NCBI GenBank assembly: GCA_035623855.1
Contig: DASPSQ010000001.1
Location: 46,092-110,091 of the forward strand
Length of the DNA: 64,000 nt
Reading direction: 5' to 3'
From: Thermoplasmata archaeon
GTDB taxonomy: Archaea; Thermoplasmatota; Thermoplasmata; Lutacidiplasmatales; UBA184
The notes below the pieces were generated by a model that was given only the letters and a program-made list of their open reading frames with translations, was not told the origin of the DNA and made no database searches. A program made the position numbers and the translations under genes. Of this stretch, positions 2,165 to 46,242 are shown piece by piece (within the stretch, counting starts at the first letter, position 1; each line of letters opens with the position of its first letter).

Positions 2165-4765
2165 ATGAGCCGGTTATACGTCGCCCGCGCTATGTCAAAT
2201 CACGGCAGGTTATTGCTGCTGGTCGTAGCCGCGGTCGTTGCGACGATGGTGTTGCCGGGCGCTTCCGCGCTCCGGATCGGTGGGACCTCCGGGCCGGTCC
2301 CGCACATGGCTCCCGCCGGTACGCACGTATCCTCCGAGAAGCCCTCCGCGACGCGATCCGTCGCAACTGGGACGATGACGACCCAAGAGCGCATCGTCTC
2401 TGACCTCAAATCGCAGCACGTCCCCTCGACTGCTGCGTTTCTGCCGAATTTTGGAGCGCGGGTCTCTACCGAGGGAGGCGTCGTGACACCGCTGTATGAC
2501 AACACGCCCGCGCCGATGGGTCTCGGCGACTTCGGAATCGAGGACGTCAATGGCCAGAATGTCGGCACGGTCACTTACGTCCGCAGTGTGATGGCGTCGG
2601 TCACCCTCAACAATGTCGAGCCGATCTACGTGACAAGCTCGGCCCCCGACGAGTTCACGATGCAGCTCAACACGGTCGGCACGAACGTCGATCTGTTCGG
2701 GAACGATAGTTACCAGTTCTGGCTCCAGAACGTTCCAATCTATGCTACGAGCACCCAGACTCTCTCGTTCGAGGACAACGTCTGGAACTTCTCGAGCCCG
2801 GCGTTCCTGTTCACTGCGAACTCGGTCTACGCCCACGGTCCCGGCGGGGTCGTCGCCGCGCCGACATTGTACTACGCCGTCGGCCCGTCCTTCCATATTC
2901 CAATGCCGTTCACAGTCGTGGTGTACAACAACCTCACCGTGGTCGGGGGGCGCTCAACGATTTTCTTCAACTACACCGTGATTCCGTCGACCGCGAGCCC
3001 ATTCTCGGGGTCCTATGACTTCGTGGAGTTCAACTCCACGCCGGCGATCACTGGGCCGGCACCCCAGCCCGTGAACCAGATTAACGGCCAGAAGGTCGGC
3101 GACACCAACTTCCTTCTGAACGACGCCGAGATCATGCTCGGCGGCCCGGGTGGTGGGTCGACAACGAGCCTCTTCCAGATCTCCGGTTCGATGGGGCTCT
3201 GGCTCCTTCCGAACGGGACGAGCACCTACCAGACGGTTCCCTCGGCGTACGATTTCGGGACGGACACCGGGGAAACGTCGGAAGGCATCGCAGAATGGGC
3301 CACAACGGGCTCGAGCCCAATGGCCGAGCTCGGGAGCGGTCCGTCGATGCTCTACGGACTCTGGGGCGTGGTCGGCGCCCAGCAGGGCGAGGAGACGATC
3401 ACGCTGAACCTGTCGCCGACGAACACGTTCGTCTTCGCGAGCCCGGGCGCCACGTTTAACGAGAGCGCGGCCGGCTGGGGGCCCACGGCGATCAGCGGGC
3501 CGACGGTCTATAACGTCGCGCCGGGGGCATACAGCTTTGAGTACCTGCTCGCGGACCACACCCCGCAGGCTGCCACGTACAGCTCGGGCGGGACCTGGAC
3601 GGTCGCGCTGACGCTGAACCCGTCGTTGGGAGACTACACGCCGCTCTGGGCCGAGGCAAATAGCCAGCTCGCGGCGATCTCGCAGGGCGGTATCGGGACG
3701 GCCAAGGATCCGTACATCCTCGACAATGGTCCGGCGAACGTGAACTCACTCTTTGGAGAGATCAACGACTACGCCTTTGTAGTGTTCCCGGGGATCTACC
3801 TGATCGACACGACCGCCTTCGTGACGGCAGCGGAGCTGCCGGCGTTCTCGATCGCGTACCTTCCGAGCCAGATCGCGGGCGCCCGCCTCATCCAGGACGG
3901 GCTGCCACTCAGCGACCAGCTGAACATCGAGCTGTACGAGACCTCCCACGTGTCGATCATCAATAGCGATCAGATCTCGGGATGGTTCGCGGCGTTTGGC
4001 TCGTTCGGGGAGCCCGCGTCGATCTACCTGTGGGGCGCGACGAACACCCTCATCGCAGGAAACGAGCTCGAGGTCGAGTCGAACGGGATCACCGCGGCCG
4101 GATTCACCGCGACGAACGGTGGGTATAACGTGATCTGGGGGAACATCTTCGCCCCCCAGCCGGTGGTCTCGCCGAGCACCGCCGAGCTCCTGAACTACGG
4201 CGCGTTCCCCGCGCTCTGGGAGTTCGAGTCGCACGACGTGATCTTTAACAACGCGTTCCTGACGCCGGTCACTGCGATCAGCTTCCCGGAAAACTTCTAC
4301 TCGGGAGCCTTCCAGCTGAACGTCGACCAATGGAACGTGAAGGTCCAGCCGTCGAGCGACGTTTACACAAAGAACGGATTCTACCTGTCGGGGAGCATCC
4401 TCGGGTTGAGCTGGGAAGGCGGCAACTACTGGAGCAACTACGGGACTCCGCAGGACCCGTTCGGCGTGCTGCCGTACAACGACGGTGGGTTGATCTTCTC
4501 CGGTGGCGACCATCACCCGCTGATCCCCTTCACGCTCTACGTGGTCCGGTTCACGGAGACCGGTCTCCCGAGCGGGACCGCCTGGTCGGTGACTCTGAAC
4601 GGCTACACTCAGACGACCACCCACGCGACCATGGTCTTCTATGAGCCGACGGGGGCCTACGCCTTCACGGTGGGCGCGGTTCCGGGATACACTGCAACTC
4701 CGTCCTCGGGCGCGGTCGACGTAGTGTCGAGCGCGGTTCTGGTGCACATTTCGTTCATGGCCTGA
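2165..4765 (+). CDS. thermopsin-family (peptidase A5) secreted glycoprotein with C-terminal beta-helix-like and Ig-like extensions
   Basis: N-terminal signal/TM segment LLLLVVAAVVATMVLPGASA. Blocks PAPMGLGDFG, YQFWLQNV...LSFEDNVWNFS and AEIMLGGPGGGSTTS...VPSAYDFGTDTGE match the thermopsin core (YWLQDV..FIDNVWN; AELVWGGGGNG..LYTFGADTAE). There are more than 20 N-x-S/T sequons. Confidence 0.75.
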   Translation: MSRLYVARAMSNHGRLLLLVVAAVVATMVLPGASALRIGGTSGPVPHMAPAGTHVSSEKPSATRSVATGTMTTQERIVSDLKSQHVPSTAAFLPNFGARVSTEGGVVTPLYDNTPAPMGLGDFGIEDVNGQNVGTVTYVRSVMASVTLNNVEPIYVTSSAPDEFTMQLNTVGTNVDLFGNDSYQFWLQNVPIYATSTQTLSFEDNVWNFSSPAFLFTANSVYAHGPGGVVAAPTLYYAVGPSFHIPMPFTVVVYNNLTVVGGRSTIFFNYTVIPSTASPFSGSYDFVEFNSTPAITGPAPQPVNQINGQKVGDTNFLLNDAEIMLGGPGGGSTTSLFQISGSMGLWLLPNGTSTYQTVPSAYDFGTDTGETSEGIAEWATTGSSPMAELGSGPSMLYGLWGVVGAQQGEETITLNLSPTNTFVFASPGATFNESAAGWGPTAISGPTVYNVAPGAYSFEYLLADHTPQAATYSSGGTWTVALTLNPSLGDYTPLWAEANSQLAAISQGGIGTAKDPYILDNGPANVNSLFGEINDYAFVVFPGIYLIDTTAFVTAAELPAFSIAYLPSQIAGARLIQDGLPLSDQLNIELYETSHVSIINSDQISGWFAAFGSFGEPASIYLWGATNTLIAGNELEVESNGITAAGFTATNGGYNVIWGNIFAPQPVVSPSTAELLNYGAFPALWEFESHDVIFNNAFLTPVTAISFPENFYSGAFQLNVDQWNVKVQPSSDVYTKNGFYLSGSILGLSWEGGNYWSNYGTPQDPFGVLPYNDGGLIFSGGDHHPLIPFTLYVVRFTETGLPSGTAWSVTLNGYTQTTTHATMVFYEPTGAYAFTVGAVPGYTATPSSGAVDVVSSAVLVHISFMA

Positions 4766-28925: not shown

Positions 28926-29963
28926 ATGTCGGGTCGAGTGAATCGACGATGGCTGGTGGCGAAGCGCTTCGACGGACAACTCACGGAAGCTAATTTTCGA
29001 TGGGTGGAGTCACCGGCTCCCGCTCCCGGCGAGGGTCAATTCCTAGTGCACAATCTCTGGCTCTCCTTCGACCCTACCCAGATCTTCATGCTCGGCCGAA
29101 GCGACGCCGTCGAACCGAATGACAGCGGAATCCCACTCGGCGAAGTGATGAACTGCATCGCGGTGTCGGAAGTGCTCGAGTCCCGGCACCCGGGTTTCGC
29201 GCCCGGGGACATCGTGCACGGCCACACCGCCTGGGAGGACTACACGGTCACAGACGGCCAGAGTTTCACCCCCACTTATCGGGTCCCGGAGGGAGTTCCC
29301 GCCAACTGGGCGGTCGGCGTGCTTGGACTCACGGGACTGGTGGCGTACTTCGGGGTCCACGAAATTGCGCGGCCCAAACCGGATGAGACCCTCGTCATCT
29401 CCGGAGCTGCCGGCGGCGTGGGGTCGATCGCATCCCAGCTCGCCAAGATCTACGGGCTCCGGGTCATCGGCATCGCCGGAAGTCCGGCGAAGTGCGAGTG
29501 GCTCCTGCACGAAGCAGGCGTGGACGGCGTGATCAATTACCGGACGGAGGACGTCGGAAAGCGGCTCACCGAACTTTGTCCGGACGGGATTGACATCTTC
29601 TTCGACAACGACGGTGGGCCCACCCTCGATATCGCCCTCGATCGGTTGCGGGCCGGGGGCCGGGTCGTGCTCTGCGGTGCGACCTCACGATACGCCGCCA
29701 AGCCCCAGCCCCCGGGTCCCGTCAACTACCTCGCCCTCGTCATGGTCAATGGACGGATGGAGGGACTCCTGGGACGGGACTACATCCCTCGGCGAGCCGA
29801 GGCGGTCGATGCCATGCTACCGTTGCTTCGTTCGGGCCGTCTCAAGTCGAAGGAGGACGTGTTGGTCGGGCTTCGCGAGGCACCGAGAGGCCTCGCGAGG
29901 CTCTACTCGGGGGACAATATCGGAAAGCAACTCCTCCGAATGGACCCGGCTCCGGGGAATTGA
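28926..29963 (+). CDS. NADP-dependent oxidoreductase, MDR superfamily (YncB/LTB4 12-HD-like)
   Basis: Rossmann motif SGAAGGVGSIASQLAKIYGLRVIGIAGS. It is paralogous (about half of residues identical by eye) to 36618..37649. Confidence 0.8.
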   Translation: MSGRVNRRWLVAKRFDGQLTEANFRWVESPAPAPGEGQFLVHNLWLSFDPTQIFMLGRSDAVEPNDSGIPLGEVMNCIAVSEVLESRHPGFAPGDIVHGHTAWEDYTVTDGQSFTPTYRVPEGVPANWAVGVLGLTGLVAYFGVHEIARPKPDETLVISGAAGGVGSIASQLAKIYGLRVIGIAGSPAKCEWLLHEAGVDGVINYRTEDVGKRLTELCPDGIDIFFDNDGGPTLDIALDRLRAGGRVVLCGATSRYAAKPQPPGPVNYLALVMVNGRMEGLLGRDYIPRRAEAVDAMLPLLRSGRLKSKEDVLVGLREAPRGLARLYSGDNIGKQLLRMDPAPGN

Positions 29964-30327: not shown

Positions 30328-31380
30328 TTGGCACCAGGAGCGCCCCGCGCTTGCCGCACGCGGCGTCCCTTCCGGGGTGTGGCAAGGCAGAATGTGGTGC
30401 TCATCGATTTAGCCTGGCCGATCGCCGAGGCAGGTGGATTCGTAGCCGCGACGGCATTCGCGGTTTGGCTGGTCTACACCCGGTGCAGTGTTCGGGTACC
30501 GCCGAACCGCGCGCTGGTCCTCTTCGGTCGCCGAGCTCCCCGGCCTGCTTCCGACTCCCCGCTCATTCCCTCCGACGTGACGCTCCGCCGACCGAGAATC
30601 GTGGTCGGAGGGAGGGCGTTCGTCGCTCCCTGGGACCGAGGGGTGGGGTACCTTTCGCTCGCGCCGATCGCGGTCGAGGTGACGGTCCGTTCGATGCATG
30701 CGCTCGAAGGGACGCGGGCCTCGGGTTGGGAAGTCCGAGTGCAGGCGCAGGCGAAGGTCCCGGCCGAGCCGGGCTTTCTCTCCGTGGCCTCGGAGAACCT
30801 GCTCGGCAAGACGGATGAGGAGGTCCGTTCGCTGATCGTCCGGACCTTAGAGGGAGCCATCCCCGCCGTCCTCGCTCGGGTCAAGACCGAGGACGGGGAA
30901 CCCGACTGGGACCGCCTGGCCGCCGAGATCCAGGCGTGCGCGGCCCCCGACCTCGTCGCGGTGGGACTCACGGTCCGCACCCTAACGGTCACCGAACTCC
31001 ACCGGATCTCGCCTCCGGCCCCCGCTGCGATCGCCCCCTTCCCGAAAGCGGACCCGGACCGAGACCGAGTGGTCGAAGCCATCGGCTCCCGCTTGAGCGG
31101 TCTCGATGCCCGTCTTGACCGCACGGAGCGGAGTCTGAGAACTCTGGGGGAAGCGATCCTGCGGACCATCCGGCGTCCGGGACTGGAGCTTGACCCTCCG
31201 AGCCACCCGTCCGTGTTCGACCGTCCGTTGGGTTCGGACGTTGCCGCCGTCGAGCCGGCGAGTTCGGACGCTTTCCTTCACGATCCTTCGGGGGGCGAGC
31301 TTTCGCCCCGCCCGCGAACGTCGCCGTTGGGCGACCTGGCGCGAGAGCGGTCGGGCGATTCCCGGTTCCCGTTGGAGTAA
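30328..31380 (+). CDS. flotillin-like SPFH/band-7 domain membrane protein
   Basis: TM helix IAEAGGFVAATAFAVWLVY. Then VPPNRALVLFGRR..RIVVGGRAFVAPWDRGVGYLSLAPIAVEVTVRS..LLGKTDEEVRSLIVRTLEGAIPAVLARVKTED aligns block by block with flotillin-1 ([67 protein letters not shown]). The ORF-track start is a TTG and the true start is probably an internal GTG near 30379-30397. Confidence 0.8.
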   Translation: MAPGAPRACRTRRPFRGVARQNVVLIDLAWPIAEAGGFVAATAFAVWLVYTRCSVRVPPNRALVLFGRRAPRPASDSPLIPSDVTLRRPRIVVGGRAFVAPWDRGVGYLSLAPIAVEVTVRSMHALEGTRASGWEVRVQAQAKVPAEPGFLSVASENLLGKTDEEVRSLIVRTLEGAIPAVLARVKTEDGEPDWDRLAAEIQACAAPDLVAVGLTVRTLTVTELHRISPPAPAAIAPFPKADPDRDRVVEAIGSRLSGLDARLDRTERSLRTLGEAILRTIRRPGLELDPPSHPSVFDRPLGSDVAAVEPASSDAFLHDPSGGELSPRPRTSPLGDLARERSGDSRFPLE

Positions 31381-31401: not shown

Positions 31402-32421
31402 ATGTGTCCGGCAGCAATTTTGGGCGACCGTGCGTGCGGAAAGACGACCTTCCTTGGGCTCCTCTATGCGGCTCAAGTGAAGTACGGAACCCGGGTGTTG
31501 GATTCGTTCCGATTCCACGCCCCGCTCCAGTCGTTGCGCCTCATGAGCCAGGTCTACGAGGGGATGAAAGACGCCCGATTCCCCGGGGCCACGCTCAAGG
31601 ACGAAATGACGGAAATCGGCTTCGTGTTCGGGTATCGTAAGCCCATTTCAGGACGCCTCCCGGCCGCGCTCAAGGACAAGAACTGGGTGAATCCGTTCGC
31701 GAAGCTATCCTTCGCAGCGTACGACGTATCCGGCGAGGACGTCCAGGAGTTCATCGAGACCGGGGTGGCCGCGAGCCCGATCATTCAGCAGCTGCTGAAG
31801 AGCCATGTCGTCGTCATTCTGGTCGACTGCAGCAAGATGACGACCGAGATCGACTCGCCCGTGTTCCGGCAGATGCTGAAGTACGACAGCGAGGTCGCGA
31901 GCCTCCTCGTCTCCCTCCAGACGTACAAGAAGCAGGAGTTCTCGCGGATGAAGACCCAGGGACTGAGCGTCGGCAACCCGGTGATCTACCCGGCGATCGT
32001 CCTCTCGAAGTTCGACTGCGTCCGGGACGAGGTACTGGTGAAGCTGGGGCTCCACCGAGGAGTTCCCGACGGGGAGCAGAAGCGGCGGCGCAAGGAGTAC
32101 GCGGAGGCGCTCCTCCGTGTGTTCATGCCGCAGACGCTCTCGCAGATCCGCGGCGGCAAGGTCGCCGGGGTCAACTTCGACCAAGCGGCGTACTTCTTCA
32201 GCTGGGTCCGAACCGAGACGGCCGAGGCCGGCATGCAGCCGCTCGGCGTGCCGCGCATCGTTCGGAAGGGATTCTCGGCCGAAGGCGGCGCGGAGCCGGA
32301 CTTCTCCTACGACGACTATGTCGCGTTCATCGAGCACTTCCGCGACGTCGCGAACAAGGTGCCCGACGAGATCGTCGAGCAGACCACGCTCCAGACCCCG
32401 CCCACCGCGGCGACCGCCTAG
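31402..32421 (+). CDS. small GTPase of Arf/SRbeta/MglA-like type with long C-terminal extension
   Basis: G1 ILGDRACGKTTFLGLL, G3 AAYDVSGED (DxxG), G4 LSKFD (NKxD-like). The ATG is preceded by aaggagag. Confidence 0.7.
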   Translation: MCPAAILGDRACGKTTFLGLLYAAQVKYGTRVLDSFRFHAPLQSLRLMSQVYEGMKDARFPGATLKDEMTEIGFVFGYRKPISGRLPAALKDKNWVNPFAKLSFAAYDVSGEDVQEFIETGVAASPIIQQLLKSHVVVILVDCSKMTTEIDSPVFRQMLKYDSEVASLLVSLQTYKKQEFSRMKTQGLSVGNPVIYPAIVLSKFDCVRDEVLVKLGLHRGVPDGEQKRRRKEYAEALLRVFMPQTLSQIRGGKVAGVNFDQAAYFFSWVRTETAEAGMQPLGVPRIVRKGFSAEGGAEPDFSYDDYVAFIEHFRDVANKVPDEIVEQTTLQTPPTAATA

Positions 32422-32470: not shown

Positions 32471-33283
32471 ATGAGCGACGCAACGGTGCTCGAGCTCGAG
32501 CACTGGATCTACGGAGCCAGCCACGAGAAAGGGTACGGGACGAAGGCCGAGTCCCGCGGCCTCAACGGGCCGCTCTACATGCGCTACCTCGAGAATCACC
32601 TGACACCCGTTCGGGTCGAGAAGACCGCGGGCGGCGGGACGTTGATCGACGCGCGGATGATCCATCCCGCCCCCGCGAATCGCGAGGTCCTGCTGTCGAT
32701 CCTGGGTCGAGGAGTCGCGGACGAGTACAACCGGCCCACGATCGCGAACCACACCGTCGTCATCCCCTACGACGCCCTTCGCACCGGTCAGCTTCGATTC
32801 GCCGATGTCGAAGCCGCCACGGTCGAGTTCGACCACAAGTTCCCGAAGGCCCTCGGCAAGGTCGACCCGATCCCGGTGAAGCTGCGCGCGCCCGGAGAGT
32901 CCCAAGAACCGCGGGGGTCGGGGATTCGCCGACTGATCACGAAGGCCGCGGTCGACACGCTCGCCAGCCGGTTCCTCGCGGACCACCAGGGACGAACCCT
33001 GATCCTCTGCCGGGGGAGCTCGAACCAGTACCGCAACGAGCTCCTCTACCACCTCGTGGAGCTCCTGCACGCCGGGGAGGAGATCGCGCTCTTCCCTGCC
33101 ATCAGCGACGCCCCGACCCTGAGCGCGATGAATCACTTCCGCCTCGCGATCTCGTCGCGCGGGGTTCGAGCGGATGGGTCGTGGACCCTGCTCGATGCGA
33201 GCATCGACCAGCCGACACTCCCTCCGATCAAGGGGAAGAGCCTCGTCTACAACCGCATCGCGGAGGCGTTCGCGTCGACGTAG
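32471..33283 (+). CDS. hypothetical protein between the two GTPase paralogs
   Basis: 270 aa. The ATG is preceded by gggagg, and it has the same codon-usage appearance as its neighbours. No motif recognised. Confidence 0.5.
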   Translation: MSDATVLELEHWIYGASHEKGYGTKAESRGLNGPLYMRYLENHLTPVRVEKTAGGGTLIDARMIHPAPANREVLLSILGRGVADEYNRPTIANHTVVIPYDALRTGQLRFADVEAATVEFDHKFPKALGKVDPIPVKLRAPGESQEPRGSGIRRLITKAAVDTLASRFLADHQGRTLILCRGSSNQYRNELLYHLVELLHAGEEIALFPAISDAPTLSAMNHFRLAISSRGVRADGSWTLLDASIDQPTLPPIKGKSLVYNRIAEAFAST

Positions 33284-33322: not shown

Positions 33323-34273
33323 GTGGGATCCGCGCTAGTCGTTGGCGACCGCGGCTCCGGCCTCACCACTTTCGTGGGACTCCTCTACGCGGCGCAGCTT
33401 CGGCTCGGTACCGAGGAGAGGGATGAATTCCGCTTCTCGGCGGACCGGGAGACGATTCGCCAGCTTGAGGGGATCTACGGGGAGCTGGTGGCCGGCCGAT
33501 TCCCCGATTGGGACGCGGACTGGGACACCCACCCCCTATCGTTCGTCTTCGCGTTCCGGTCCGGCACCTTCCCCCGGCTGAGGGGTGCCGGGGTAAGTCA
33601 CGATGGAGGGTTCGATTCGTTCCGGGTTCAGGTCGGGGGAATTTCGGTGGAAACGGTGGCCGAGTTGTCCGAGCACGATGCCATCCTCGAGAATTCCACG
33701 CGCGAGCTGCTCCGGAGCCCCGTCGTGCTTCCGCTCGTCGACGCGTCACGGCTCCTACCGTTGGTCGAGGAGATGGACCGACGCCCGCTCGAACGGTACG
33801 ACCGAATGCTCGCGGCGACCCTTGACCTGCTATCTCGCTTCCTATCGGCGGGGCGGGTCCGAAAGCTTCGGACCCTCTACCCAATGTTCGTGGTCACGAA
33901 GTTGGACCAGTGCCCTTCCGAGACCCTGAAACGCTTCCACATCCCCGCCGGCGTTCCGTCGAGTTGGCCCGCCGGGACCCGAGAGTCGGTGGGGGAGAAC
34001 ATCCTGACCTCCTACCTCCCGGAGACCCTTCGACTCATCCGGACGACGAAGGGTCGAAGGGGGGGCAGTATCGCGCTACCGAAATGGTTCTTTAGCGGCC
34101 TTCAGCTGGTTGCAGGACCCGAGGGGGTACGAATCGCTCGACGCTCCCGGATCCCCGTTGGCGGCTGGGAGCCGGAATACCCCTTCGAGGAATACCGGAT
34201 ACTCATTCGCCAGTTGGCCGTGCTGGCGCACCGCCTTCCCACTTGGGACGAAAGCACTCTTCGCCCCGATTAG
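33323..34273 (+). CDS. paralog of the upstream small GTPase with a degenerate P-loop (pseudo-GTPase)
   Basis: LVVGDRGSGLTTFVGLLYAAQ versus AILGDRACGKTTFLGLLYAAQ: the Walker-A Lys is replaced by Leu. The G4 VTKLD is retained. GTG start. Confidence 0.65.
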   Translation: MGSALVVGDRGSGLTTFVGLLYAAQLRLGTEERDEFRFSADRETIRQLEGIYGELVAGRFPDWDADWDTHPLSFVFAFRSGTFPRLRGAGVSHDGGFDSFRVQVGGISVETVAELSEHDAILENSTRELLRSPVVLPLVDASRLLPLVEEMDRRPLERYDRMLAATLDLLSRFLSAGRVRKLRTLYPMFVVTKLDQCPSETLKRFHIPAGVPSSWPAGTRESVGENILTSYLPETLRLIRTTKGRRGGSIALPKWFFSGLQLVAGPEGVRIARRSRIPVGGWEPEYPFEEYRILIRQLAVLAHRLPTWDESTLRPD

Positions 34274-35835
34274 GCGGCTCGCTTCGCCGTGAATCGGAAG
34301 CCCTTCTCGTGCGAGCCTTCTCGCACGACCGTCCATGCTCCGATGGTCCAAGTTTCGTCGGACGGATGCCACTGGGGGTCGCCTCGTGCTAGGTCGCCGA
34401 GCTCCGCCTCAAGGTACTCATGGTCCGTCACGACCTCCGGCACGAGCGAGCCTTTCTGGAGCAACGTGGCGAGCAGCGGTAGTCCGGCCGGGCGACCCCG
34501 CCACTTGATCGAGAGGAACGACTGTCGGAACTCGGGGTCTTCCAAGAGGAGGCTCCGAAGCTGGGCGTACGCCGTACTGCTGTGACACTCCTTAGGAGGT
34601 GTCTCGAGCCGCCGTCGCTCTCTCCGACGCTCTTTCACCACCCGACGCCACGCGGCGGCGTCCACTTCTTCGGCCGTCCAGATGGTGGTGGCATCCACCT
34701 CCTCGGCCTCGTCGGAGTCCGCTCCTTCGGCCTCTTCCGTCGCGGTGCCTACCCCTGTTTCAACGGGACCCCGGCCTCTGCCCGTCAGCTTTCGGCCCGG
34801 TCGTCCGGTCACTAAGCTGTAGGCGAGGGCCGCACCGGTCATGTTGCCCACCGGAGGCCGAATCTGGACTTCGTCGCACTCGGGGTACCGGTTCGGATGC
34901 AGGATGATGAACGGGCCGGTCTCGGGACCGCTGAACAGTTGGGCGAGCGCATCGTTGATGGTGGGCACCTGCCGGCGAACCGCGAGCTCGCTCAACCGAA
35001 CGAGCGGGACCGGTCCCTCCTTGTCCCGGCGGCGCACGGTCAGGTCGTCCAGAATCGCCTGGGCGACCTCGGCCCGGATCTGCTGGATCGGCGCCCGGCT
35101 CAGGGAAGACTCCACCCAGCGGTTCCGACGCAAACTTTGTCGCACTCGGCCTCCCAACGACCCTGACCGCGATGCTTGGGCGTAGACGGACCCGAGCCGC
35201 AGGTTGAGCCACGGTTGGAGCCGGCCTCCGCTGACACGGGAGTCGGCGAAGAGCCCCGCCCAGCTTTCCGCCATTCGATCGGACCAATCCTCCTGGCGGG
35301 GACTATTCTGGTACCAAAGGAACACTTGGTCCCGGAGAAATGCTCCCGCGCTCAAGGGGTCGTCCAATTCCTGTTTCACCCGAGCCATCAGGGCTTCGGC
35401 CTGCCGGGTGATGGCGGAGAGGAGGACCGAATCTCCTCGCGCCGCCTCGATGAGGTCCGGAAACCTCTGAGCGTTGAGCGCTTGGATGTTGAAACGCTCC
35501 ATCGGATTGGTCTGCAGGAATTCGGCAAGAATCGGGGGCCGCAGCGCGCCGCCAATGTTCCGGCCGGCCGGGGGGATCACCGTTCGGCTGACCGACGCCA
35601 TGGCATCGGGCCGAGCGAGGGTCGCCTCCTCCCGAGCTCGGGCCGAAGGGGCCGGATGCTCCAACATCTTCTCCGTTTCTTCGACGGATGGAGAGACGCC
35701 TCGGTCGGAGATGGATCGGAGCCGTCCGAGCTCACGCCGACGGTCGGTACGCTCCTCGTCGATCCGAGCGCGCTCGACGGCCCTCCGCTGCTCGCGGTCG
35801 CGCAAAATGCGCGCCGCGTCCGACTCATCAGACAT
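34270..35835 (-). CDS. hypothetical protein (521 aa) with Arg/Glu-rich N-terminus and an acidic linker
   Basis: Long minus-strand ORF convergent to the GTPase operon. It overlaps the stop of the pseudo-GTPase gene by 4 nt. Confidence 0.5.
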   Translation of the reverse strand: MSDESDAARILRDREQRRAVERARIDEERTDRRRELGRLRSISDRGVSPSVEETEKMLEHPAPSARAREEATLARPDAMASVSRTVIPPAGRNIGGALRPPILAEFLQTNPMERFNIQALNAQRFPDLIEAARGDSVLLSAITRQAEALMARVKQELDDPLSAGAFLRDQVFLWYQNSPRQEDWSDRMAESWAGLFADSRVSGGRLQPWLNLRLGSVYAQASRSGSLGGRVRQSLRRNRWVESSLSRAPIQQIRAEVAQAILDDLTVRRRDKEGPVPLVRLSELAVRRQVPTINDALAQLFSGPETGPFIILHPNRYPECDEVQIRPPVGNMTGAALAYSLVTGRPGRKLTGRGRGPVETGVGTATEEAEGADSDEAEEVDATTIWTAEEVDAAAWRRVVKERRRERRRLETPPKECHSSTAYAQLRSLLLEDPEFRQSFLSIKWRGRPAGLPLLATLLQKGSLVPEVVTDHEYLEAELGDLARGDPQWHPSDETWTIGAWTVVREGSHEKGFRFTAKRAA

Positions 35836-36052: not shown

Positions 36053-36316
36053 TCAAGCCGGTAGCGGAAGATAGAACCCACACCGGGTACAGTAGACACT
36101 ACCGGTGCCATTCGGCCAACCGCACTGGGCGCACGTGGTCTCCCGACCCGTGCCGGAGGAGGCGGAATCGGATCCGATACCCCAGAGCAGGCCCGCTCCC
36201 ATGCATACCAATCCGATGAAAACCACCACAAACCCTTCCCCAACCGAGACGGGCATCAGCAATGCGCCCACGACGAGGAAAAACGCTCCGACGATCAGCG
36301 CAGGGACGCTCGCCAT
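36053..36316 (-). CDS. small membrane protein with C-terminal zinc ribbon
   Basis: Two TM helices (ALIVGAFFLVVGALLMPV; VVVFIGLVCMGAGLLWGI) then CAQCG...CTRCG. The start is taken at the internal ATG of ORF-track 36053..36556. Confidence 0.4.
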   Translation of the reverse strand: MASVPALIVGAFFLVVGALLMPVSVGEGFVVVFIGLVCMGAGLLWGIGSDSASSGTGRETTCAQCGWPNGTGSVYCTRCGFYLPLPA

Positions 36317-36617
36317 GCTGCTGGCGGTAGGACATGGATGTACTTCTCCGATTCTCATACATAGGATCCGGAGGTTGAGTCCCCTCACGGTGGTCGATGG
36401 GGTGACCTCGTCCGTCGCCGGGAGCCGACGGCGACCTACGAACAAACGAAAGGGCAAGTTTCGAGTTTGATCCGGGTCGATGGCTTGGACGCACCCGTTG
36501 GGAACACCAATCCCTTCGTCTACCAGCGAGTTGGCTGTGACAGTTCTTGCGACCAAGCCCGACCCGAATGGCCCGCCGATTACGGAGCGTTAATCCCCAC
36601 CGTCCAAATTCCGCAGC

Positions 36618-37649
36618 TCACGACGGAATCGGCAGGGGTGGGTCGGCGAGCTTGAGGAGTTGTTTGCCAAAGTTCTCGCCCTTGAACAGCCGCGCCAGAG
36701 TCTTCGGGGCGTTCTCGAGGCCGACGGCGATGTCGACCCTCTGCTTTAGACGACCTTCGGCGTGCCATCGCGCCAGCACCGGCAACGCCTCCGAGAATCG
36801 TGCGGCGTAATCGAAGATGAGGAAACCTTCCATTCGGCCCCGACTCCGAATCAGGATGGAGTAATTCCTCAACGGACGGAACTCCCACGCGACATAATTC
36901 GAGATCGCGCCGCACATCACGATCCGCGCGTGCAGGTTGATCCGGGCCAGCACCTCGTCGAGAATCTCGCCGCCAACGTTGTCGAAATACACGTCGATCC
37001 CGTGCGGGCAGGTCTCGGAAAGACGGGGACCGACTTGCTCCCCGCGATAGTCGATGGCGGCATCGAAGCCCGCCTCCTTCCGCAACCACTCGCACTTCGC
37101 GGGACCCCCGGCGATGCCGACCACACGGGCTCCGAGGATCTTGGCGATCTGGCCGGCGATCGAACCGACCGCGCCCGCCGCGCTCGAGACGACGAACGTC
37201 TCTCCCGATCGGACCTTGCCGATATCCGTCACGCCAAAGTAGGCGGTCAACCCGGTGCCGCCCAAGAGGCTCATCGCTAACTCCGGCGCCACGCCGGGAG
37301 GAACTCTCGCGAGCGGGCTCAAGCCGCCCCTGCTGGTAGCGACGTAGTCTTGCCAACCGATGGGGCCGGTGACGAGCTCGCCGACCTTGAAACCCGCATT
37401 GCGCGACTCAATCACCTGACTCACCCCGAAGGCGCGCATCACCTCGCCGAGCGGGACCTTCGGGGCGTATGTGTCCGCCTTCATCCAACCTATTTGCGTC
37501 GGATCGCAGGAGATCCAAAGGTTCCGGAGGAGGACCTCTCCGTCCCGTGGCGTCGGGATCGAGGTCTCCGTCCACTTGAAGTTCTGTTCACTGAACATGC
37601 CTTCGGGCCGGCTCGCGAGCAGCCACTGGCGGTTCTTCCCACCCATCAT
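36618..37649 (-). CDS. NADP-dependent oxidoreductase, MDR superfamily (paralog of 28926..29963)
   Basis: SSAAGAVGSIAGQIAKILGARVVGIAGGPAKCEW. Conserved blocks NLWISCDPTQ and GLTAYFGV are shared with the paralog. Confidence 0.8.
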   Translation of the reverse strand: MMGGKNRQWLLASRPEGMFSEQNFKWTETSIPTPRDGEVLLRNLWISCDPTQIGWMKADTYAPKVPLGEVMRAFGVSQVIESRNAGFKVGELVTGPIGWQDYVATSRGGLSPLARVPPGVAPELAMSLLGGTGLTAYFGVTDIGKVRSGETFVVSSAAGAVGSIAGQIAKILGARVVGIAGGPAKCEWLRKEAGFDAAIDYRGEQVGPRLSETCPHGIDVYFDNVGGEILDEVLARINLHARIVMCGAISNYVAWEFRPLRNYSILIRSRGRMEGFLIFDYAARFSEALPVLARWHAEGRLKQRVDIAVGLENAPKTLARLFKGENFGKQLLKLADPPLPIPS

Positions 37650-37913
37650 CGGACCTCCCTCCAGCAATCGAGGTCGTTCCTACCATCAAAGACTCAGGAC
37701 CGGTATAACTCCGGGCCCGGATTGTTCGGTGAGCCTATCCGAGGTCAGACCGTCGTCCGGAGCGTTCACCGCTTCTCCTGAAGGAGGTAGGATGCCCAGC
37801 GTCCGAGGCGACCCGAATCCCGAGGAATTGAGCGGCCTCTCCACTTCCCCGCGCCCATCGCGTGCGCTCCCGGAGGTAAACTTGTGAGTACTGCCACCAC
37901 CTGTAACTCGGCA

Positions 37914-45944: not shown

Positions 45945-46242
45945 CCGTCGGTCCCCGTCCCACATCGGACTCGCAAGGGTTTCCGTTCACGAGGCACGTA
46001 GCTCGCTTCGCCGGCCGGCGAAGACGAGCACGGGGCTAGTCTTGGCTGACACGACACCTCGGCCCGAACCGAAACGAGCTGGGTCGCTGGCACCTCAGCT
46101 GACGGCGTTTTGTGGGTGGGCCTTCCCCCAGCTCTTCGAGTCGGTGTGCCACAAAGTCCCTTGTGCAACGCACCCGTGCTACCCGCCGAGTGTTTCATGA
46201 CCTCCTTCAGGAGTTTATCTCCCGTCTTGATGTGCCGTGCCC

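Follow-up and report, generated by a model that had tools for sequence, protein, structure and literature searches.

Gene content of the locus

The 64,000-nucleotide stretch analysed here (hereafter the window; positions 46,092 to 110,091 of the forward strand of contig DASPSQ010000001.1) comes from a soil archaeon of the Thermoplasmata and contains a cluster of five genes, two of which encode a pair of GTPase paralogs, denoted A and B. The genes follow one another in the order SPFH, A, MID and B, with DN521 convergent to B. All G motifs are complete in A, which is predicted to be catalytically intact, whereas B has lost the Walker-A lysine and further catalytic motifs and is a conserved, predicted pseudo-GTPase. 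The features of the cluster, in window coordinates, are as follows (aa, amino acids).

30328..31380, plus strand: SPFH/Band 7 (flotillin-like) protein, first gene of the cluster; start codon uncertain
31402..32421, plus strand: paralog A, 339 aa, predicted catalytically intact DO-type TRAFAC GTPase, judged by its complete G motifs
31423..31452, plus strand: P-loop of A, GDRACGKTTF (residues 8-17), with the Lys14 codon AAG at 31441-31443
31720..31740, plus strand: Walker B/G3 of A, YDVSGED (residues 107-113), with the Glu characteristic of DO-GTPases; invariant in 84 of 84 A-type proteins
32471..33283, plus strand: MID, 270 aa, TagF-like by predicted fold, the N-terminal half being longin-like and the C-terminal half alpha/beta and DENN-core-like
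33323..34273, plus strand: paralog B, conserved predicted pseudo-GTPase, 316 aa, GTG start, assigned by homology to A and motif loss
33344..33373, plus strand: degenerate P-loop of B, GDRGSGLTTF (residues 8-17), with the Leu14 codon CTC at 33362-33364
33626..33655, plus strand: G3 remnant of B, VQVGGISVET (residues 102-111), with Asp replaced by Gly106, Gly replaced by Val109 and Glu110 kept (pairwise alignment, motif table and hmmalign statistics)
33896..33907, plus strand: retained G4 motif of B, TKLD, with T192, K193 and D195 invariant
34270..35835, minus strand: DN521, 521 aa, convergent with B and part of the conserved cluster; adjoins the GTPase genes in all four locus types described below (1, 1b, 2 and 2b)

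Loss of the Walker-A lysine in paralog B

A and B align end to end with 29% identity and 46% positives (BLASTP, E 6e-38), so that their similarity is far beyond chance and not confined to the N-termini, which read MCPAAILGDRACGKTTFLGLLYAAQ in A and MGSALVVGDRGSGLTTFVGLLYAAQ in B. A sequence-only reading of the window had quoted these strings and pointed to a lysine-to-leucine replacement in the second paralog. Both strings are exact, and codon 14 is indeed AAG (Lys) in A versus CTC (Leu) in B, a difference that requires at least two base changes.

When 5.8 billion proteins were searched with B, 192 relatives were returned, and all named ones belong to Thermoplasmata metagenome-assembled genomes. 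Among the 120 listed clusters of B orthologs (90% identity), the Walker-A position is occupied by Leu in 117 and by Gln in three; Lys, and with it the intact GKT/S P-loop which the same reading had named as the mark of a private mutation, is found in none. The leucine codon is CTC in 25 and CTG in 10 instances in species-representative genomes. Every full-length A ortholog carries Lys, the lone exception being a fragment of 200 aa. An alignment of 39 B orthologs, with identity down to 50%, contains 48 invariant columns, and residues G11, G13, L14 and T16 are invariant in it. Judged from these alignments, the loss of the lysine in B is ancient and conserved, and not private to this genome.

Further motif decay, selection and predicted fold

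With hmmalign, we fitted to the A profile 84 A-type proteins and 70 partner paralogs, all taken from species-representative genomes. The motifs of A are G1 (GDRACGKTT), G2/switch I (ATLK), G3 (YDVSGED), beta4 (LVDCSK) and G4 (SKFD), and residues K14, K66, D108, G111, E112, D142 and K203 are invariant wherever present in the A-type proteins. Compared with A, the window copy of B has K14L, T64D, K66D, D108G and G111V. It lacks the lysine-containing G1 signature GxxxxGK[ST] (GDRGSGLTT in B), the switch-I Thr of G2 and the DxxG of G3, and retains E110, the beta4 Asp (D140) and a G4 motif of the [NT]KxD form. As these motifs show, the decay of B goes well beyond the single lysine first seen. With two lysines turned into Leu or Asp and the ligands of Mg and the gamma-phosphate lost, canonical phosphate binding by B appears unlikely and B probably no longer binds nucleotide phosphates, whereas the retained TKxD could serve in base binding, in structure or in a contact in trans. 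At B residues 64-67 (33512-33523 in the window), the place of T64 and K66 in switch I of A, lies a new acidic/aromatic motif with nearly invariant D64 and W67, followed by H70. The motif looks like a gain of function and not mere decay.

The partner paralogs as a group have decayed to different degrees. The residue at the position of Lys14 is Leu in 34 of the 70, Lys in 22, Arg in six, Thr and Val in two each, and Gln, Gly and Phe in one each. D108 is kept in just two of them and G111 in just three; a complete G3 (DxxG) occurs in none of the 70, the Lys-retaining clade included. Where a residue is aligned (68 partner paralogs), the beta4 Asp is retained in 66, K203 in 67 and D205 in all. In the wider family, roughly one-third of 94 full-length representatives are A-type and the remainder are degenerate in varied ways. 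One protein of the representative library (P0452) combines Leu at the Walker-A position (GLEGSGLST) with an apparently intact G3 (MDIAGE), an order of loss opposite to that in all others.

The ratio of non-synonymous to synonymous substitution rates (dN/dS) of B is 0.17-0.41 against twelve other genomes and 0.17 in the closest pair; B is under purifying selection and is not decaying. The ratio is 0.13-0.35 for DN521 and 0.02-0.08 for A, which is under unusually strong constraint. Identity to the closest genome is 99% for A, 96% for MID, 84% for DN521, 82% for B and 76% for SPFH, and in more distant genomes A stays 91-97% identical whereas B drops to 48-61%.

An AlphaFold2 model of B, made from the ortholog alignment, has a pLDDT of 83.3, a pTM of 0.86 and a beta-alpha G-domain core. 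Its Foldseek matches in the PDB are G-alpha subunits, the stress GTPase YcjX, atlastin and RABL3, with scores that are weak (E ~1e-4, TM 0.3-0.4) because of large insertions. The model, these matches and the full-length homology to A all point to a G-domain fold that would have outlived the loss of the lysine, as the sequence-only reading had proposed. Rag is absent from the top 50 Foldseek matches of B, and sequence searches of the PDB with the A, B and MID profiles gave nothing below E 0.04 and no solved relative. With a predicted GTPase fold, lost catalytic motifs and ongoing selection, B would correspond to a pseudo-GTPase in the sense of the Stiegler and Boggon classes.

Distribution and gene orders across Thermoplasmata

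The gene neighbourhoods were scanned in one genome per GTDB species, and the open reading frames (ORFs) of the resulting 80 loci were searched with the window proteins. Nearly all loci carry the titles Thermoplasmata, Thermoplasmatota or Methanomassiliicoccales; two with bacterial titles, one of them a contig of 2.2 kb, are probably mis-binned. A, MID and a partner paralog (B, B' or X) occur together in about 70 loci, in four gene orders.

Type 1 (the window): SPFH, A, MID, B, convergent DN521; Leu or Gln at the Walker-A position of the partner
Type 1b: DN521 (minus strand), SPFH, A, MID, B'; Thr or Val at this position
Type 2: X, A, MID, convergent DN521; Lys at this position (intact GKT)
Type 2b: DN521 (plus strand), X (minus strand), A, MID; Arg at this position (GRTF)

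At every type 1 locus that extends far enough, B lies in the operon of A, and that A has all G motifs. Both type 1b and type 2b are present in four genomes. Outlier partners have Gly, Ser or no recognisable P-loop (locus L056). In a low-GC lineage with an A of only 37% identity, the partner (GSGRTV) follows A and precedes MID; at one such locus (L083) the neighbours of 487 and 315 aa showed no similarity to SPFH and DN521. In a neighbour-joining tree of A and the partner paralogs, the rates differ too widely to tell whether the Lys-retaining partners are orthologs of B. Our reading of the motifs and gene orders traces the asymmetric pair back to the common ancestor of these systems, with the partner losing the catalytic G3 first and the lysine later, more than once. 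In the window, the stop codons of B and DN521 share four bases (34270-34273), and convergent 3' ends overlap or abut elsewhere too, for example those of MID and DN521, by about 25 bases, in type 2 loci.

A as a distant relative of the DO-GTPases

The window copy of A scores 23.8 and 16.1 bits with Pfam DO-GTPase2 and DO-GTPase1, just short of the curated cut-off of 27 bits, and B scores 12.1 bits. DO-GTPase2 matches all 38 A orthologs (E < 0.1, best 8.5e-8) and DO-GTPase1 matches 33 of the 38. An hhalign comparison of the A profile with a Pfam-positive DO-GTPase of 686 aa from locus L084 covers 224 columns at 97.3% probability (E 2.6e-11), and the motifs are in register. The Walker B Glu of DO-GTPases (DxxGE) is present in A as DVSGE in 84 of 84 proteins, and B keeps the Glu alone. 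Of 1.84 billion cluster representatives, the A profile hits no more than 192 at E < 1e-3. By these sequence comparisons, A would belong to a small, separate and remote subfamily of DO-GTPases.

The DO-GTPases were defined computationally (Kaur et al., 2020, eLife; Pfam PF19993, PF19975 and PF20013), and dimers of paralogs have been predicted for them; none of the 12 passages on inactivity covered, of 26 in that paper (PMC7159879), deals with the GTPase paralogs. The cluster shares with the DO-GTPase/GAP1 systems a TRAFAC GTPase with Glu after the Walker B Gly, two GTPase paralog genes per operon, a partner protein encoded directly downstream and recurrent membrane links. It differs in that its GTPases have neither N-terminal zinc ribbons nor transmembrane segments, the partner is a protein of 270 aa and not the three-domain GAP1, and the cluster looks vertically conserved in Thermoplasmata. 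No FNIII or GASH component, variable effector module or sign of mobility was found at these loci; the same five proteins recur without effector domains.

A separate arrangement was observed in the lineage of loci L084 (7001-10602 and 11766-15011) and L080, whose A is ~45% identical. Here a single protein of 858 aa unites the MID homolog with an AAA+ ATPase, a RuvB-type winged helix and DUF835, no clear second paralog lies nearby, and the Pfam-positive DO-GTPase (686 aa) and a GAP1-N2 protein are encoded 4 kb downstream on the same strand.

MID, the SPFH protein and DN521

MID is always within the operon of A and directly downstream of it in most layouts. Its Arg residues R88, R175 and R181 are invariant. 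It belongs to no family at the sequence level, has no sequence relative in the PDB and gave no Pfam match beyond a weak one to GAP1-N2, seen in four of 26 MID homologs (12-19 bits, cut-off 24) and collinear over about 100 of the 139 profile positions. An hhalign comparison of the MID profile with one GAP1-N2 protein (from L084) produced no match, and MID is too short for the three domains of GAP1. Two proteins in which A and MID appear joined (P0194 and P0212) were rejected as natural fusions: both combine a truncated A with a truncated MID, have no contig on record and are probable frameshift artefacts.

The AlphaFold model of MID (pLDDT 78.6, pTM 0.83; residues 17-56 poor) consists of a beta-beta-alpha-beta-beta-beta-alpha-alpha half followed by an alpha/beta sandwich. 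Foldseek places TagF first (E 3.9e-5, TM 0.54), followed by C9orf72, the Lst4 longin and FLCN; the fold matches overall comprise DENND1A, DENND10, C9orf72, FLCN, FNIP2 and the Lst4 longin, and two methods agree on TagF/DENN/longin. The modelled order, an N-terminal longin fold and then an alpha/beta DENN core, makes MID a longin plus DENN-core-like protein at the level of the predicted fold. It has no sequence match to Pfam DENN, uDENN, dDENN or TagF, and its 270 aa leave no room for a d-DENN lobe. In eukaryotes, the longin/DENN module is a guanine nucleotide exchange factor (GEF) or a GTPase-activating protein (GAP) of small GTPases.

The best structural match of MID, the type VI secretion-associated TagF (PDB 9t0n), shows no sequence similarity to it. 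TagF is a bacterial protein involved in the regulation of type VI secretion, and we know of no GTPase that it partners. At the low-GC locus L083, a divergent gene upstream of A (3298-4020, minus strand) encodes a protein with an FHA domain, which scores E 1e-4 in Pfam and lies above the cut-off. In type VI secretion TagF is reported to act via the FHA protein Fha; the presence of an FHA gene beside A at this locus may be a coincidence.

The SPFH gene lies upstream of A in type 1 and type 1b loci. Its product matches NCBIfam FloT (4.6e-12, residues 81-224), and Pfam Band_7 is found in eight of 11 orthologs (best E 1.1e-10), the window copy being sub-threshold (E 0.2). The protein has one N-terminal hydrophobic segment, with a single Kyte-Doolittle window above 1.6 at about residue 23. 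DN521 could be assigned to no family in Pfam, NCBIfam or PADLOC; its N-terminus is charged, its C-terminal domain is conserved in all four gene orders, and 27 columns of its alignment are invariant. In type 2b loci (L043, L052 and L062), the DN521 homologs contain an insert of ~250 residues with hydrophobic stretches, apparently several membrane helices, and a homolog at L082 (4293-5972) carries an N-terminal CxxC...CxxC zinc ribbon. The membrane link of the system would thus be made differently in different clades.

Proposed role of the pair and alternative explanations

The active/inactive GTPase pair put forward in the sequence-only reading is well supported by the conserved loss of the lysine, the predicted retention of the fold, purifying selection and an operon shared with an intact A; physical heterodimerisation of A and B we infer, and the obligate form that the reading proposed is putative. 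We consider it reasonably probable that the cluster encodes a GTPase switch associated with the membrane, with A as its sole catalytic GTPase, B as a conserved pseudo-GTPase subunit and MID as a regulator or effector platform. In such a switch, A would be the slowly evolving working GTPase and the only site that turns over GTP. A and B would dimerise G domain to G domain, as dimerisation-activated GTPases do, into an asymmetric pseudo-homodimer with B as a fixed-state partner or adaptor of A. By comparison with DENN and longin modules, MID might serve A as exchange factor, GAP or effector platform. Membrane placement of the complex would fall to the SPFH protein and DN521. Dynamin, a dimerisation-activated GTPase, has the G4 motif TKLD, which the [ST]KxD form found here resembles. 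Pairing through the G domains would be as predicted for the paralog dimers of DO-GTPases and as in dimerisation-activated GTPases, whose G4 is also TKxD.

Known GTPase pairs fit this arrangement to different extents. In Rag A/C and SRP/SR, which the sequence-only reading had offered as models, both partners bind and hydrolyse GTP, so that the comparison is inexact: B lacks the G1 Lys, G2 and G3. Degenerate septin subunits appear to be a closer precedent for a dead paralog in an assembly. Septins, too, are family paralogs of which one is catalytic and the other dead yet kept in the assembly through a nucleotide-proximal interface (PMC10731463), but they form filaments in eukaryotes, whereas no polymer is indicated here and the A-B contact is predicted only. 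MglA/MglB and the archaeal small GTPase-Roadblock operons likewise co-encode a prokaryotic GTPase with a regulator of the roadblock/longin fold; MglA, however, is a single-copy Ras-like small GTPase with no pseudo-paralog, and MglB is a single roadblock domain.

The Rag analogy nevertheless gains an unexpected echo, because longin/DENN-fold proteins regulate Rag and the longin/DENN-like MID is encoded between A and B. Rag A/C with FLCN-FNIP and Ragulator, DENN-Rab and C9orf72-SMCR8-ARF would share with the cluster a paired G-protein unit, longin/DENN-fold regulators and a membrane scaffold. Differences are that the Rag subunits are both active and dimerise via C-terminal roadblock domains, and that MID has neither the d-DENN lobe nor a sequence match to DENN families.

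The alternative in which B does not pair with A takes it for a pseudo-GTPase of class i type, a protein-binding module like AAGAB, CENP-M or the dynein LIC that tethers MID, DN521 or the SPFH protein, A being a monomer or homodimer. Unusual surfaces mediate the binding of known class i pseudo-GTPases to partners that are not GTPases (PMC12490416). B, DN521 and SPFH resemble one another in rate, all evolving faster than A, and the switch-I region of B carries the new conserved acidic motif with its nearly invariant D64 and W67. We hold this to be unlikely, since the paralogous origin, the common operon and the G4 and beta4 motifs kept at the nucleotide-proximal face fit a G-interface partner, as do the paralog dimers predicted for the DO-GTPase family.

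A role in conflict or defence, as in the bacterial DO-GTPase-GAP1 systems, with A and MID as the constant switch and B and DN521 as fast-evolving sensors or decoys, would account for the homology of A to DO-GTPases, the weak GAP1-N2 matches of MID, the two paralogous systems in some genomes (WH2.bin11, clean3262, REEB18 and clean282), the canonical DO-GTPase/GAP1-N2 pair 4 kb from an A-like gene in L084 and the varying architecture of DN521, with its transmembrane insert or zinc ribbon in some loci. It has a minor share of our confidence, given that none of the five cluster proteins has a PADLOC match, that the set of five proteins stays the same in dozens of species, with no variable effector domains, and that metabolic genes flank the cluster in the window. 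Moreover, the low dN/dS of A and its 91-99% identity where B shows 48-82% are typical of a core cellular protein.

The cluster might also be an archaeal, non-Asgard counterpart of the eukaryotic longin/DENN-GTPase logic, in which MID would control an obligate live/dead G-domain heterodimer, as its exchange factor or its GAP, on an SPFH membrane microdomain; this is speculative and, in our estimate, quite improbable. Were it true, a DENN-like fold would have been coupled to GTPase control already in prokaryotes, and the GAP1-N2 of bacterial DO-GTPase systems would be a longin domain.

That B is still an enzyme, one that binds and hydrolyses GTP or another nucleotide through residues that have moved or that A or MID contribute in trans, strikes us as very improbable. 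Its TKxD, P-loop glycines and Thr15/16 are invariant, and pseudoenzymes whose catalytic residues have migrated are known (PMC10211241). Five phosphate- or Mg-contacting positions have changed together, however, including two lysines that are now Asp or Leu, and the clades differ freely at the lysine position (L, Q, T, V, G, R or F), one of them (L056) having no recognisable P-loop. As a protein, B evolves ~5-10 times faster than A, but the idea that the gene copy is decaying or the assembly wrong has next to no probability and is refuted by the orthologous ORFs, intact in more than 100 clusters from independent assemblies, the dN/dS of 0.17 at low divergence, the 48 invariant columns and the confidently predicted fold.

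The finding joins two known kinds of system, a DO-type GTPase system and a pseudo-GTPase. To our knowledge, pseudo-GTPases have mostly been described in eukaryotes and their mechanisms are poorly understood, and DO-GTPases have been described only computationally. Here, a compact archaeal system of five genes contains one paralog frozen by selection (dN/dS ~0.03), whereas the partner paralogs form a graded series of active-site decay across clades, of G3, then switch I, then the Walker-A lysine and then the whole P-loop. This series constitutes a natural experiment on why a dead G domain is kept. If MID regulates A, a fold regarded as a hallmark of eukaryotic GEFs and GAPs would be tied to the control of a prokaryotic GTPase.

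Genomic surroundings of the cluster

The metabolic genes in the window flanks encode an AidB-like acyl-CoA dehydrogenase, two oxidoreductases and one hydrolase. Upstream of DN521 and on the same strand, an ORF of 167 aa (36053-36556, minus strand) encodes a protein with hydrophobic stretches and, at its C-terminus, a zinc ribbon (Pfam E 1.2e-4); having no homolog in any related locus, it was rejected as a member of the system. The cluster is flanked by inverted oxidoreductase paralogs of the ADH_N_2/ADH_zinc_N type, which are 50% identical to each other and lie at 28926-29963 on the plus strand and 36618-37667 on the minus strand.
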